The notes under the pieces are model-generated. The model did not search any database. It was not told where the DNA came from and worked only from the letters and a program-made list of their open reading frames with translations. DNA of 64,000 nt. Source: Candidatus Latescibacterota bacterium. Lineage in GTDB: Bacteria > Latescibacterota > UBA2968 > GCA-2709665. The stretch lies in contig CBDDDZ010000005.1 in assembly GCA_965226795.1 (NCBI GenBank), forward strand, positions 2,445,257 to 2,509,256. Reading direction: 5' to 3'. Position numbers and translations under genes: made by a program. Below are positions 41,577 through 45,736 of this stretch, piece by piece (within the stretch, counting starts at the first letter, position 1; each line of letters begins with the position of its first letter).

Positions 41577-41632
41577 TTGCCATTGCAACCCGAATGCTTT
41601 ATATTAAACCCAAATAAGATAAGCCCGGCTTA
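41577..41632 (+). promoter_or_regulatory. Sigma70-like promoter (TTGCCA-17-TATATT) followed by palindrome ATAAGCccggGCTTAT
   Basis: -35 at 41577-41582, -10 at 41600-41605 in an AT-rich intergenic region upstream of the CBS-korAB genes; perfect 6-bp-arm palindrome at 41617-41632. Confidence 0.4.
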
Positions 41633-41749
41633 TTGTTGAGCGCGGGATCCGGAAACGACTGCCGAGCGGGAACAACGCATCCTGCGTACCGGAAGCTGGC
41701 CGCAAAACCGGACGACCTGGTGGGGCGTATCGATTCCGGGAGGAGCCAG

Positions 41750-42217
41750 ATGGAACTGAAAGTGAATATTCGGACCGCTCTGATAACCCAGGTCGACCTT
41801 TCGTATTACGTCGAGACCGAAAAAGGCACGCGAGCCGGAGATGTACTCGAAAAGATGAAGGCCAGTCATCGGAAATGCGCCCTGGTGATGGACCACGGCC
41901 GGCTGGTCGGCATCTTCACTGAGCGAGATATCATGAAAAAGATGGCAGGTAACCCGCAGAGCAGCGATGCGCCGATCGACAACCTGATGACGCCCAACCC
42001 TGAAACAATCGACGCGGACACGAACATCCTGGATGCCACCAGGGTGATCGCCTCGAACCGCTACCGGTACATGCCGGTTACCAATGAGACGGGCAAGGTC
42101 CTGGGTACATTGACCTATTATGCCATTATCAAATACATCTGCGACTATTTTCCGCAGGAAATTTACAACCAGCCGCCCGTGCCGGACGTGTTTGCCAAAG
42201 CCCGTGCCGGCGCTTAA
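41750..42217 (+). CDS. CBS-domain pair protein
   Basis: Two CBS motifs (LVGIFTERDIMKKM..., YRYMPVTNETGKVLGTLTYYAIIKY); 155 aa; immediately upstream of korA. Confidence 0.8.
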   Translation: MELKVNIRTALITQVDLSYYVETEKGTRAGDVLEKMKASHRKCALVMDHGRLVGIFTERDIMKKMAGNPQSSDAPIDNLMTPNPETIDADTNILDATRVIASNRYRYMPVTNETGKVLGTLTYYAIIKYICDYFPQEIYNQPPVPDVFAKARAGA

Positions 42218-42273
42218 CCGGTAAATACTTTTTCTCCAGAGCCGTAGCATAAAAAACCGGGAGGTTGATCCAG

Positions 42274-44148
42274 ATGGCCGAAACAGCCGTCGAAGAGATT
42301 GACGCAGAGGGTGATTTACTGGACGAATTGACCGAGGTCGAGTCCATTGCGGTCCGATTTGCCGGCGACTCCGGCGATGGCAGCCAGTTTATTGGCGGGG
42401 AATTTGCAAACACATCCGCCATAGTGGGCAACGACATCAGCACCATGCCGGACTTCCCCGCCGAAATCCGCGCTCCCGCAGGCACATTGCCGGGAATCAG
42501 CGGGTTCCAGGTCCGCATTTCCAGCGAAGACATTTTCACTCCCGGAGACGAGCCGCAGGTGCTTGTTGCCATGAACCCGGCCGCATTGAAGTCCAACCTC
42601 CCGGATCTGCCGCGCGGGGGAGTGGTCATCACCAATACGAATAGCTTTACACGAAACAACCTGCGCAAGGCCGGCTACCAGACCGACCCGCTGGAAGACG
42701 GATCGCTGCAGGATTATCGCGTTTGCAAGGTGCCTTTAACAGCCCTGCACAAGAGAGCTGTAGCCAACATTGATGGCCTGTCCAACCGGCAGATCGGTAT
42801 GATGAAAAACTGCTTCGCACTCGGCCTTGCCTATTGGATCTTCGACCGTCCGCTGGAACCAACGGTCCGCATGCTGGAAGAGAAATTCGCCAGCCGTCCC
42901 AATGTCGTCGAAGGCAACGTAACGACCTTGAAGGCCGGATACAACTACGGTGAAACGACCGAACAATTCCAGTTCAGGTACAAGGTGTCCAAGGCCGTGG
43001 TCGAACCCGGCACCTATCGGACCGTTACCGGCGCACAGGCCACGGCAATGGGTTTCGTCACCGCGGCCCATAAGGCCGGCAAGACCCTCTTTTACGGCAG
43101 CTACCCCATCACCCCCGCCAGTGCCCTGCTCGAAGCGTTGGCCGCCTTGAAGAACTTCGACGTGCGCACCTTTCAGGCCGAAGACGAAATTGCAGCCATC
43201 GGTTCCGTCATCGGCGCCGCATTCGGGGGCGCTTTTGCCGCAACCGGCACCAGCGGACCCGGCGTCGCACTCAAGAGCGAGGCCATCAACCTGGCCCTGG
43301 TCCTGGAATTGCCCCTGGTGATCGCCAACTTTCAACGGGGCGGGCCCAGCACGGGGCTTCCCACGAAAACGGAACAGTCCGACCTGCTCCAATGTATGTT
43401 CGGCCGTAACGGCGAAAGCCCGGTCCCCATTGTCGCGCCGGCCACATCCTCCGACTGCTTCTACCTGGGCATCGAGGCCTTTCGTATCGCGGTTGAAAGC
43501 ATGTCGCCGGTCTTCTTTCTTTCCGACGGCTATCTCAACAACAGTTCCGAACCCTGGAAATTGCCGAACCCGGACGACATTGACACCATCGTCGTCGAAC
43601 ATCGAACGGATCCAGAGAATTTCCAGCCATATATGAGGAATGCGCAGACCCTCGCACGTCCCTGGGCCCTCCCGGGCACACCCGGCCTGGAACACCGCAT
43701 CGGCGGGCTCGGTAAACAGGACGGCACCGGAAACGTGTCATACGATCCGAAAGACCATGAATACATGGTGAAGATCCGCGCCGAAAAGGTCGCGCGTATC
43801 GCCAATCGGATTCCGAAGCAGGATGTTTACGGCCCTCTCGCAGGCGACCTGCTTGTTATCGGCTGGGGCAGCACGTACGGCGCCATCAGGTCCGCGGTTC
43901 GCAAGGCGGTTTCCAACGGCCGATCTGTCGCCCACGCCCACGTGCGATATCTGAACCCGTTTCCGGCTAACCTGGGCAACCTGCTTCTGCGCTATCGCAA
44001 AATCCTGGTTCCCGAAATTAACGGTGGGCAGCTATCAATGTTGCTCAATGCCAAGTACCCTCTGCGTGTCATCAGCTATCCCAAAGTTCAGGGACAGCCC
44101 TTTAAGATTTCTGAAATCCTTAACAAAATCCACGAGTTGCTCGATTAG
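42274..44148 (+). CDS. korA: 2-oxoglutarate/2-oxoacid:ferredoxin oxidoreductase alpha subunit
   Basis: Fused PFOR domain III/I architecture of KorA/OorA, ~625 aa. Confidence 0.9.
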   Translation: MAETAVEEIDAEGDLLDELTEVESIAVRFAGDSGDGSQFIGGEFANTSAIVGNDISTMPDFPAEIRAPAGTLPGISGFQVRISSEDIFTPGDEPQVLVAMNPAALKSNLPDLPRGGVVITNTNSFTRNNLRKAGYQTDPLEDGSLQDYRVCKVPLTALHKRAVANIDGLSNRQIGMMKNCFALGLAYWIFDRPLEPTVRMLEEKFASRPNVVEGNVTTLKAGYNYGETTEQFQFRYKVSKAVVEPGTYRTVTGAQATAMGFVTAAHKAGKTLFYGSYPITPASALLEALAALKNFDVRTFQAEDEIAAIGSVIGAAFGGAFAATGTSGPGVALKSEAINLALVLELPLVIANFQRGGPSTGLPTKTEQSDLLQCMFGRNGESPVPIVAPATSSDCFYLGIEAFRIAVESMSPVFFLSDGYLNNSSEPWKLPNPDDIDTIVVEHRTDPENFQPYMRNAQTLARPWALPGTPGLEHRIGGLGKQDGTGNVSYDPKDHEYMVKIRAEKVARIANRIPKQDVYGPLAGDLLVIGWGSTYGAIRSAVRKAVSNGRSVAHAHVRYLNPFPANLGNLLLRYRKILVPEINGGQLSMLLNAKYPLRVISYPKVQGQPFKISEILNKIHELLD

Positions 44149-44176
44149 CCCTACGCCTGAATCGGGAGATACTTCC

Positions 44177-45736
44177 ATGGCCGAAGCCATATTGGAATCC
44201 CAACAATTGACCCGCAAAGACTTTGTATCGGACCAGGAAGTCCGCTGGTGTCCAGGCTGCGGGGACTACGCCATTCTGGCACAGATGCAAAGGGTGCTTC
44301 CCGAACTCGGCATTCCCAGGGAACAGATCGTCTTCATCTCCGGGATCGGTTGTTCCAGCCGTTTTCCGTATTATATGAACACCTATGGCGTGCACTCGAT
44401 CCACGGGCGTGCGCCAACCCTCGCCTCGGGCCTGAAGGTAGCCAACCCGGACCTGCATGTGTGGGTCATCACCGGTGACGGGGATGGGCTCTCCATCGGC
44501 GGCAACCATCTGCTGCATATTCTGCGCAGAAACGTGAACGTGAACATTATCCTCTTCAACAATCGCATCTATGGGCTCACCAAGGGGCAGTACTCCCCAA
44601 CGTCGTTGCCTGGACACAAGACCTACTCGTCGCCCATGGGCTCCATCGAACAGTCCTTCAATCCCATCTCCGTAGCCATCGGCGCCGAGGCCACCTTCGT
44701 CGCGCGTTCGGTAGACAGGAACACCAAGCACCTTGCCGAAATGCTCCGCCGGGCGGCCGCGCACAAGGGCACCTCGTTTGTCGAAATCTATCAGAACTGC
44801 AATATTTACAACGATGGCGCATGGTTCCACATCACCGAAGCGGACGTGAAAGACAACAATACGTTAATTGTCGAACACGGTCAGCCGATGATATTCGGCA
44901 AGGACCACGACAAAGGCATCCGGTTGAACGGTCTGTGTCCGGAAGTCGTGACGCTTGGCAATGGCACATCCGAAAACGCCCTGCTGGTACACGACGAAAC
45001 CGTGGATCCGCCCGCGCTGGCTTACATGTTGAGCCGCATGGAACATCCCGATTTTCCAGTTCCGTTGGGCGTTCTCCGCTGTGTGGAACGACCCGTTTAC
45101 GAAGATCAGATTCTCGCCCAAGGGCGTGAGGCCGTCGAACTGCTTGGGGACGCCGATTTGTCCACACTCTATCAGGCCGCGGATACATGGATTGTATCTG
45201 AAGAGGACAGCGTACCTACAGAACGGGACGTCGTCGAGGAGGAAATCAAGACAGATATCCCCGAAATCATACCGGGAATCGGCGACGAGGATCCGCTGGC
45301 GCCAAAGTCCGAATTCCAACATCTCGTTATCGATCCGATTTCGACCGTAAAACTCCATATCCCGGAATTCATCGCGCCGGGAGCCTCAATGCTGGAAGCC
45401 ATGGCGCTGATGGAGGAGAAAGACGCCGGCTGTCTACTGGTTTCCGAAGACGGCGCCACCCTTAAGGGCATTCTGGCCGAAGGCGACTTTTTTGTAAAAG
45501 TCGTGGGTAACAACATAGATCTGGCTTCTACGCCCGTCGAAGATGTGATGACACCCAATCCCATAACCATGAGGTTGTCAGACCCGATCGGATACGCATT
45601 GCATCTGATGGACCTGCACGGCTACCGACATATCCCGGTTGTCGACCACGCCGGACGGGCCGTGAAGGTGGTTTCGTTCCGGGCGGCTCTGGAGTTCTTC
45701 ACTCAACTCTACGACAACGGCACATCCGGAAACTGA
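44177..45736 (+). CDS. korB: 2-oxoacid:ferredoxin oxidoreductase beta subunit with C-terminal CBS-domain pair fusion
   Basis: TPP-binding KorB core ([11 protein letters not shown]...GDGD.LSIGGNH...) followed by a ~130-aa CBS pair ([39 protein letters not shown]..., [25 protein letters not shown]). Confidence 0.9.
   Translation: [519 protein letters not shown]

Follow-up and report, generated by a model that had tools for sequence, protein, structure and literature searches.

Organization of the cbsA-korA-korB operon

The window analysed here is a stretch of 64,000 nucleotides (nt) from contig CBDDDZ010000005.1 of a Candidatus Latescibacterota bacterium. Between positions 41577 and 45736 it contains three co-directional genes on the + strand, cbsA, korA and korB. 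We are highly confident of their organization: an operon cbsA-korA-korB::cbsB, which encodes a KorAB-type 2-oxoacid:ferredoxin oxidoreductase (OFOR) together with two different Bateman modules (pairs of CBS domains), of which CBS-A is free and CBS-B is joined to the KorB C-terminus. The coding features are as follows.

41750-42217, + strand: cbsA, a free CBS-pair (Bateman) protein of 155 amino acids (aa), matched twice by Pfam CBS (E = 1.1e-20)
42274-44148, + strand: korA, the OFOR alpha subunit, of the fused gamma+alpha type, 624 aa; Pfam POR, POR_N and PFOR_II
44177-45736, + strand: korB, 519 aa, one uninterrupted open reading frame (ORF) with no stop and no frameshift
44177-45181, + strand: catalytic core of korB (residues 1-335), a thiamine pyrophosphate (TPP)-binding beta subunit with a predicted [4Fe-4S] cluster
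45182-45310, + strand: tether (residues ~336-378), acidic, proline-containing and predicted to be disordered (AlphaFold2 (AF2) per-residue confidence, pLDDT, <50 at residues 336-371)
45311-45736, + strand: CBS-B, a Bateman module (residues ~379-512), followed by a short C-terminal end and the stop codon

A standalone CBS-pair protein just before korA had been proposed in a preliminary description of this DNA, and the Pfam search bore this out, with a score of 74 bits for cbsA against a cutoff of 24. The ATG start of the gene is preceded, at a distance of 5 nt, by the ribosome-binding site GGGAGGAG. KorA scored 624 bits on TIGR03710 OAFO_sf (2-oxoacid:acceptor oxidoreductase alpha), for which the cutoff is 482.75, and 28 nt separate the end of korA from korB, so that the cognate alpha subunit adjoins the beta subunit. 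The GGAGGT ribosome-binding site of korA was conserved upon comparison with three related loci, namely L081 (a relative at 90% protein identity), L002 (~65% identical in KorB) and L001. A terminator-like hairpin over the cbsA stop codon (42205-42223) was attributed to chance, because its 3' arm was not kept in these same three loci.

Pfam TPP_enzyme_C covered residues 57-204 of KorB (E = 4e-32; 111 bits, cutoff 21.9), and a GDG-x24-NN thiamine-diphosphate motif begins at residue 100. Four cysteines (Cys25, Cys28, Cys59 and Cys208), invariant in 60 homologues, are putative [4Fe-4S] ligands; they align with the WCPGCG, GIGCSS and QC motifs of 6N2N_B, the beta chain of the 2-oxoglutarate-specific enzyme (OGOR) from Magnetococcus, which KorB matched both in phmmer (E = 1.2e-59) and in Foldseek (E = 9e-24). 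The Foldseek matches of the core comprised 6n2n_B, 5b46_B and 8ys5_C. On NCBIfam TIGR02177 PorB_KorB, the protein scored 258.2 bits (cutoff 261.9) and covered model positions 2-192 of 286, the shortfall of 3.7 bits being due to the fact that KorB is of a longer type, whose C-terminal core is unlike the model.

By these matches, KorAB is a typical two-subunit 2-oxoacid:ferredoxin oxidoreductase, with the shortfall on TIGR02177 as the one reservation. The solved enzymes from Magnetococcus marinus (OGOR, 6N2N) and Sulfolobus tokodaii (OFOR, 5B46/5B48) have the same KorA and KorB domains, the same TPP motif and the same four beta-subunit cysteines and, like KorAB, no built-in ferredoxin domain. 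However, the beta chains of 6N2N and 5B46 are 292 and 304-305 aa long (286-301 modelled residues) and have no CBS pair, whereas KorB of the window also has the extended C-terminal part of the core (~130 aa) that characterizes KorB proteins of 340 aa, and then the tether and the Bateman module. PDB sequence searches found no CBS protein as a chain of the 6N2N, 5B46 or 5B48 entries. The substrate of KorAB is probably 2-oxoglutarate. Homologues are named by JGI as 2-oxoglutarate-specific OGOR and the closest solved structure is OGOR 6N2N, with the broad-specificity Sulfolobus OFOR scoring nearly equally; on the NCBIfam equivalog models for 2-oxoglutarate synthase, the window proteins fell far below the cutoffs.

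In all, KorB exceeds the canonical ~340-aa KorB by ~175 aa, consisting of a ~40-aa linker and a ~135-aa CBS pair. The preliminary description had noticed this extra pair, absent from canonical KorB, and a Pfam domain search indeed returned two CBS matches in the C-terminus (E = 7e-16). In an AF2 model of KorB, built from a 60-sequence alignment, the core was folded and CBS-B (residues ~380-512) was predicted at a pLDDT of ~90. Foldseek matched CBS-B to the CBS pairs 2yzi, 2ef7, 2rc3 and 3kpb, with TM-scores to target of 0.8-0.87, and further to CBSX2-AMP, OpuCA-c-di-AMP and AcuB. The intervening tether (residues 336-378) contains 14 D/E, 3 K/R and 5 P.

The fusion had also been called unusual, a view that did not survive a survey of homologues. 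Among the 120 best clusters at 90% identity that KorB matched, 118 combined TPP_enzyme_C with CBS at 495-526 aa, and the fused form extended to Latescibacterota, Chloroflexota and Planctomycetota. At 50% clustering (best 150 clusters), it came down to ~5 full-length representatives and 3 fragments, so by this measure the fused KorB-CBS proteins are one moderately diverse family. In the source databases, the fused clusters are labelled 'CBS domain-containing protein', 'thiamine pyrophosphate-dependent enzyme' or '2-oxoglutarate ferredoxin oxidoreductase subunit beta'. The nearest named relatives are labelled Latescibacterota and, in some cases, Gemmatimonadota.

Since korB and the CBS gene are separate in many relatives (in L002 they lie in the same frame, 4 codons apart), one could imagine that an assembly or gene-calling artefact had joined them in the window. 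The chance of this is negligible. The window frame is open over 519 codons, identical 519-aa products are found in at least five independent assemblies, 118 clusters contain the fusion, and the linker region is conserved among fused homologues. Moreover, products of 155, 624 and 519 aa, in the same order, were called independently in five other assemblies, which excludes a hidden stop or frameshift in korB. The single ORF, the five assemblies and the 118 clusters effectively refute the artefact, in line with what the preliminary description had assumed.

Judged by their conserved positions, CBS-A and CBS-B are two distinct families, each with its own hallmarks. CBS-A was modelled by AF2 with a mean pLDDT of 91.2, and its Foldseek matches to solved CBS pairs, like those of CBS-B, had TM-scores to target of 0.8-0.87; the CBS pair takes up residues 1-138, and a tail (residues 139-155; FPQEIYNQPPVPDVFAKARAGA in the window) was modelled as coil with a pLDDT of ~70. 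This tail follows the motif (F/Y)Pxxh(Y/L)N(L/Q)PPxP, followed after 6-8 residues by a C-terminal (E/D/A)G(A/G), and it is retained down to ~30% identity. Within the CBS pair, G54, I55, F56, T57, D60, P84, R106 and P109 were invariant among 58 homologues. The hallmarks of CBS-B are PI..L, GC.LV, G(I/V)(F/L)xExD, MT..P and G(F/Y)RH(I/L)P. Searches for a curated NCBIfam family returned, for either module, only generic CBS matches far below threshold. The best PDB sequence matches of CBS-A were multi-CBS proteins in large complexes (9znf_5, E = 2e-13; also 9ZNI, 9E6Q and 9SR9), all four entries being matched only as generic CBS proteins.

In solved CBS sites, a strand-end threonine, together with an aspartate in the first turn of the helix, anchors the ribose hydroxyls of the ligand (PMC6429129). 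The first CBS domain of CBS-A has the sequence GIFTERD, in which T57 and D60 fit this ribose-binding type of motif (GhhT/SxxD). The second site of every CBS-A protein is degenerate. The corresponding stretch in the first domain of CBS-B is GILAEGD in the window; the glycine and the aspartate were present in 100% of 33 CBS-B sequences, and the T/S position holds T or S in most relatives and alanine in the window.

Fused, split and upstream forms of the module

In the best 80 genome loci, counterparts of KorA, of the KorB core and tail and of CBS-A were located among the six-frame ORFs. CBS-B was found in three arrangements. It is fused to KorB in 10 loci besides the window (Latescibacterota, Chloroflexota and one Planctomycetota). 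In 18 loci it is a gene of its own directly 3' of korB (Planctomycetota, Acidobacteriota, Omnitrophota, Dehalococcoidia and other Latescibacterota), and 11 of these 18 unfused proteins carry an N-terminal zinc ribbon, CPxC-x(10-11)-CxxC. Finally, in four Poribacteria-type loci, CBS-B is a separate gene located upstream, beside cbsA. On the strength of these gene arrangements, the window operon represents one version of a conserved module of four parts, cbsA-korA-korB-cbsB, known from at least seven phyla. Many uncultured lineages carry it: Latescibacterota, Chloroflexota, Planctomycetota, Acidobacteriota, Omnitrophota, Poribacteria and Dehalococcoidia. Close KorAB relatives with neither CBS protein also exist, and the presence of the modules is patchy even within families.

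How the fusion came about can be surmised from the nearest split locus. In a neighbor-joining tree of KorB cores, the sister of the window is L002, where (at 7030-7050) the TAA of korB is followed by 4 codons and then, in the same frame, by a zinc-ribbon cbsB; a single stop-codon loss in such a locus would recreate the window fusion. The window linker aligns with the L002 stop codon, the 4-codon gap and the ribbon (HENIPGTDICDGCGVSLTQEDLPA); it is of similar length and has no cysteines. Indeed, KorB of the window has no cysteine between residues 336 and 418, so that the Cys4 ribbon is absent. On the simplest reading, the fusion thus probably originated when the korB stop codon was lost, and the ribbon cysteines disappeared afterwards. 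Such a decay of the ribbon after fusion would also suggest that its role had been to hold CBS-B at KorAB, a role that would be redundant once the link had become covalent.

A separate metagenome sample was drawn by the CBS-A motif alone. Among its 49 informative tail-bearing loci, korA lies directly 3' of the CBS-A gene in 29; the other 20 had no alternative neighbour in common (HTH_32, helicase, peptidase S46, amylase and SnoaL were seen). Two metagenome-assembled genomes (L090, 5001-10627; L091, 4001-8528) presented a different context: a CBS-A protein with an NLPPxP...REGA tail, followed by a 118-aa 2x[4Fe-4S] ferredoxin and by nuoA, nuoB, nuoC, nuoD and nuoH. This context hints that the CBS-A family may be tied more broadly to ferredoxin-dependent electron flow.

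Taken further, it could mean that the true partner of CBS-A is ferredoxin, or ferredoxin-dependent electron flow, and that CBS-B merely recruits CBS-A to KorB. Two-subunit OFORs have no built-in ferredoxin domain and depend on external ferredoxin, which would suit such an arrangement. The plant proteins CBSX1 and CBSX2, reported to regulate thioredoxins and to act on ferredoxin-thioredoxin redox proteins, are among the closest structural matches of CBS-A, and in both metagenome loci the CBS-A gene stands directly 5' of the ferredoxin gene and nuoABCDH. However, there are only two such loci, neither the window operon nor most korAB-linked loci include a ferredoxin gene, and the dominant neighbour of CBS-A is by far korA. 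We therefore regard a primary role on ferredoxin as very improbable.

Two other arrangements were observed around these genes. In three Chloroflexota loci (L005, 7895-10179; L008, 7812-10100; L009, 7738-10060), the fused korB-CBS gene is directly followed by a second, divergent korA/korB-like pair (KorA, E ~1e-40 to 1e-45; KorB core, E ~1e-38). In the locus L086/L087 (1-10531), the operon is cbsA-korA-korB, with a KorB of 341 aa and no CBS-B; its upstream neighbours are a LysR regulator and a divergently transcribed gene for the large subunit of glutamate synthase, and its downstream neighbours are FAD-linked oxidases. This neighbourhood hints at 2-oxoglutarate metabolism at that locus.

A proposed regulatory unit on KorAB and its alternatives

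Sixty-one of the mapped loci had both flanks present and were informative as to co-occurrence. CBS-A and CBS-B were both found in 28, CBS-A only in 3, CBS-B only in none and neither in 30; these counts include a by-eye correction of three regular-expression misclassifications (L010, L070 and L071) and, the loci being phylogenetically related, are descriptive only, a reservation that bears on everything drawn from them below. The co-inheritance of the two families, combined with the mobility of CBS-B (fused, free or upstream), points to one two-component module and not to two independent layers. Hence the 'two layers of control' proposed in the preliminary description are probably wrong. That CBS-B is fused to KorB in some lineages and split from it in others suggests, by the Rosetta-stone argument, an association of CBS-B with KorAB, and on this pattern we think it likely that the CBS modules are physically and functionally associated with the enzyme as regulators.

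The mechanism that we propose is as follows. CBS-A and CBS-B would act jointly, as a single regulatory unit bound to KorAB, most likely in the form of a heterodimeric CBS-A:CBS-B disc. A disc is proposed because Bateman modules normally pair in this way, and they usually do so by self-association (PMC6429129); the pairing of A with B, which we draw from the co-occurrence pattern, is a tentative element of the scheme, somewhat less likely than not. The tether (in the fused forms) or the zinc ribbon (in the unfused ones) would keep the unit at the enzyme. There, the unit may bind an adenosine-containing ligand at the conserved GhhT/SxxD sites, and a ligand-driven rearrangement of the disc would alter OFOR activity, possibly because the surface through which ferredoxin or CoA gains access to KorAB is blocked or cleared by the CBS-A tail or by the disc. 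An adenosine-type ligand is, given the sequence motifs, quite possible, albeit a little short of an even bet. Some gating of KorAB by energy charge or by a ligand, as the preliminary description had it, is plausible. For the explanation as a whole, inferred mechanism included, with CBS-A and CBS-B forming one regulatory unit on KorAB, we see the chances as evenly balanced.

A more specific version would have an obligate A:B nucleotide sensor in which the CBS-A tail (NxPPxP...R-E/D-G-A-COOH) plugs, depending on the ligand, the ferredoxin site or the CoA/substrate-access site. We consider this version distinctly unlikely.

Several points weigh against a joint A:B unit sensing an adenosine ligand. 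CBS-A occurs without CBS-B in four loci (L017, L025, L041 and L086), and ~40% of tail-bearing CBS-A genes in the metagenome sample do not adjoin korA, and two CBS-A genes lie beside a ferredoxin-nuo cluster, so the specificity of CBS-A may extend beyond KorAB. In the subclade of the window, the second site of CBS-B is degenerate, with KVVSFRAAL in place of GIISFRDVL. The ligand itself cannot be read from sequence, as CBS pairs also bind S-adenosylmethionine, c-di-AMP, NAD, Mg2+ or nothing. Lastly, pairing of the KorB-borne modules with each other across an (alpha-beta)2 enzyme, accompanied by CBS-A homodimers, would fit the data equally well.

This last arrangement amounts to two independent layers, namely a B:B disc gating the enzyme in cis and a separate A:A homodimer of CBS-A, perhaps with another ligand or target. 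In 6N2N and 5B46, enzymes of this type form (alpha-beta)2 dimers, which would make two KorB tails available for pairing, and self-association into a homodimeric disc is the commonest behaviour of Bateman modules (PMC6429129); the occurrence of CBS-A without CBS-B, or away from korA, would also be natural for a separate layer. Yet CBS-B was never found without CBS-A in the 61 informative loci, and the Poribacteria-type loci place both CBS genes side by side. Such consistent joint gain and loss would not be expected of independent regulators, and we deem two separate layers rather unlikely.

It is also conceivable that the modules are structural or protective, serving assembly, oligomerization or stabilization of the Fe-S enzyme (e.g., against oxygen), with nucleotide sites that are vestigial or always occupied. 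The modules would then be accessories, as their absence from close KorAB relatives and their patchy presence within families might indicate; some CBS pairs have no known ligand, and one site is degenerate in CBS-B of the window subclade and one in all CBS-A. Nevertheless, across phyla, the ribose-type threonine and aspartate of the first CBS domain vary little or not at all in either family, which speaks for a ligand site that has been maintained, and a disordered tether of 40 aa is typical of a mobile regulatory module, not of a structural brace. A structural or protective role therefore appears improbable to us.

Among known systems, a close counterpart of a joint regulatory unit is AcuB of Bacillus and Geobacillus (PDB 9S4W-9S52), a free, operon-encoded Bateman protein that binds adenine nucleotides and that, in its AMP-bound state, binds and inhibits a partner enzyme governing acyl-CoA metabolism (PMC13121692). 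AcuB is thus a working precedent for the inhibition of a partner enzyme by a free Bateman protein encoded in the operon of the pathway that it controls, and it ranked among the best structural matches of both CBS-A and CBS-B. Unlike these, it has a C-terminal ACT domain, is a homodimer and targets the deacetylase AcuC. In the window, by contrast, there are a free CBS protein and a different one joined to the enzyme, neither has an ACT domain, and the target is presumably an OFOR.

Covalent attachment also has its precedents. For CBS-pyrophosphatase (CBS-PPase), inhibition by AMP and ADP and activation by ATP and Ap4A are reported (PMC11172384). CBS-PPase, IMPDH and cystathionine beta-synthase resemble KorB in that a Bateman module sits covalently on a catalytic domain, with allostery through adenosine derivatives; they differ in having a single type of CBS pair, inserted or appended, that homodimerizes, whereas the window adds a co-inherited free CBS-A with its tail.

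Other relatives share isolated traits. The CBS-Zn-ribbon ('CBS-rubredoxin-like') proteins TA0289 of Thermoplasma (1PVM/2QH1), which was among the matches in our PDB sequence and structure comparisons, and 3GHD of Pyrococcus combine a CBS pair with a Cys4 ribbon, as do 11 of the 18 unfused CBS-B proteins. The ribbon of TA0289 is reportedly C-terminal, whereas that of unfused CBS-B is N-terminal and the window protein lacks the ribbon cysteines altogether; we know of no link between TA0289 and OFORs. Plant CBSX1 and CBSX2 (4GQW, 4GQY and 3SL7) are stand-alone single Bateman modules that bind AMP and are among the best matches of CBS-A in both sequence and structure. They are, however, eukaryotic and homodimeric, lack the NxPPxP...xGA tail and have no link to 2-oxoacid oxidoreductases. 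As for the tail, cyanobacterial CBS-CP12 joins a CBS pair to a short, partly disordered C-terminal regulatory peptide (PMC6142219). The analogy with the CBS-A tail is a formal one, on possible mechanism only, since the two peptides have unrelated sequences and different target enzymes. The Cys pairs and the AWD_VEEL motif of CP12 are absent from the CBS-A tail.

Both CBS-regulated enzymes and free CBS regulators (AcuB, DarB and CBSX) are already known, and what would be new here is a widespread, uncharacterized two-component Bateman system dedicated to an OFOR. Literature searches aimed at CBS together with OFOR, KorAB or ferredoxin oxidoreductase found no CBS-OFOR link, the two candidate papers mentioning CBS in unrelated contexts, and further searches returned general CBS literature only. 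OFORs stand where the oxidative decarboxylation and the reductive carboxylation of 2-oxoacids diverge and, to our knowledge, have been treated as controlled mainly by expression and substrate supply. If our reading is correct, a dedicated Bateman pair would provide direct, metabolite-level control of the OFOR step, with one of its two modules tethered covalently to the enzyme in some lineages and free in others. If, in addition, the heterodimeric sensor with a plugging tail were real, it would be the first allosterically switched 2-oxoacid:ferredoxin oxidoreductase, and in at least seven phyla the energy charge of the cell would bear directly on how fast, or in which direction, a reversible step that releases or fixes CO2 proceeds.

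The pairing recurs in many bacterial phyla and offers a lead on possible direct metabolite switching of a central redox enzyme. The fused, split and upstream variants, the CBS-A tail and the apparently decayed ribbon could serve as natural constructs for studying how CBS modules dock on, and switch, a large Fe-S enzyme. The two sets of hallmarks also provide an annotation rule, in that genes now labelled 'CBS domain-containing protein' and adjoining korAB can be split into two definable families.

Promoter, dyad and surroundings of the operon

Upstream of cbsA, and beyond it toward the neighbouring genes, the following elements were located.

41577-41605, + strand: sigma-70-type promoter, TTGCCA (41577-41582), 17-nt spacer and TATATT (41600-41605), agreeing with the consensus at 10 of 12 positions
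41612-41749, + strand: predicted 5' leader, ~138 nt long for a transcription start near 41612, with the GGGAGGAG ribosome-binding site at its 3' end
41619-41633, + strand: dyad ATAAGCCCGGCTTAT (ATAAGC-CCG-GCTTAT), 15 nt long, its 6-nt arms separated by a spacer of 3 nt, spanning about +8 to +22 in the predicted transcript
41390-41418, - strand: divergent promoter-like site, TTGATT, 17-nt spacer and TATATT

The promoter scan by itself was at the level of chance, with 4 sites against 2.8 ± 1.6 in shuffled sequences. The call is supported instead by conservation, because in L081 both hexamers and the block between them are unchanged amid intergenic DNA that has otherwise diverged. Judged by this comparison, the promoter, which had already been singled out in the preliminary description, is real and conserved. 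The leader of ~140 nt given there likewise agrees with the length predicted here. As to the palindrome described after the promoter, its existence was confirmed by its conservation in L081 and L002; its sequence had been misread by one base, and it measures 15 nt instead of 16.

In L081 (3441-3455) the arms of the dyad are invariant and a spacer base differs. In L002 (3460-3474) the exact core also lies 5' of cbsA and is extended to GAATCATAAGCacaGCTTATGATTC, with 11-nt arms. The dyad is probably functional, as a candidate operator or 5' stem-loop, because only ~0.05 chance matches would be expected over all the loci examined. A scan of the window for further copies that might delineate a regulon found none, even with 2 mismatches allowed. 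The dyad resembles an operator, and no regulator gene adjoins the operon in the window.

A riboswitch or attenuator in the leader was also considered and found no support, as the leader had no Rfam match at E ≤ 1 and its predicted folding was no more stable than that of shuffled sequences, either in the window or in L081 (z = -0.99 and -0.96). The divergent promoter-like site lies outside the module; both of its hexamers are kept in L081, amid diverged flanks, and it fronts the genes for an M81/MlrC-like peptidase (39763-41280) and a creatininase (38933-39706).

Nothing in the window supports the role in carbon fixation that had been suggested for the enzyme. The neighbouring genes encode the M81/MlrC-like peptidase, the creatininase, a DUF309 protein, a sulfatase, heparinase-like proteins and a selA-selB-tRNA-Sec cluster, and four ORFs (30776-32707, 35916-36845, 46344-47081 and 48547-49440) had no Pfam match at E ≤ 1e-5. 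The selenocysteine-insertion cluster (49593-53160, - strand) is complete and consists of selA (51706-53160), selB (49820-51718) and tRNA-Sec (49593-49690, anticodon TCA); selB and selA occur in the same order in L081. Finally, the regions 28963-34875 and 47184-48545 encode two heparinase II/III-like proteins and the sulfatase, which suggests an organism that degrades sulfated polysaccharides.

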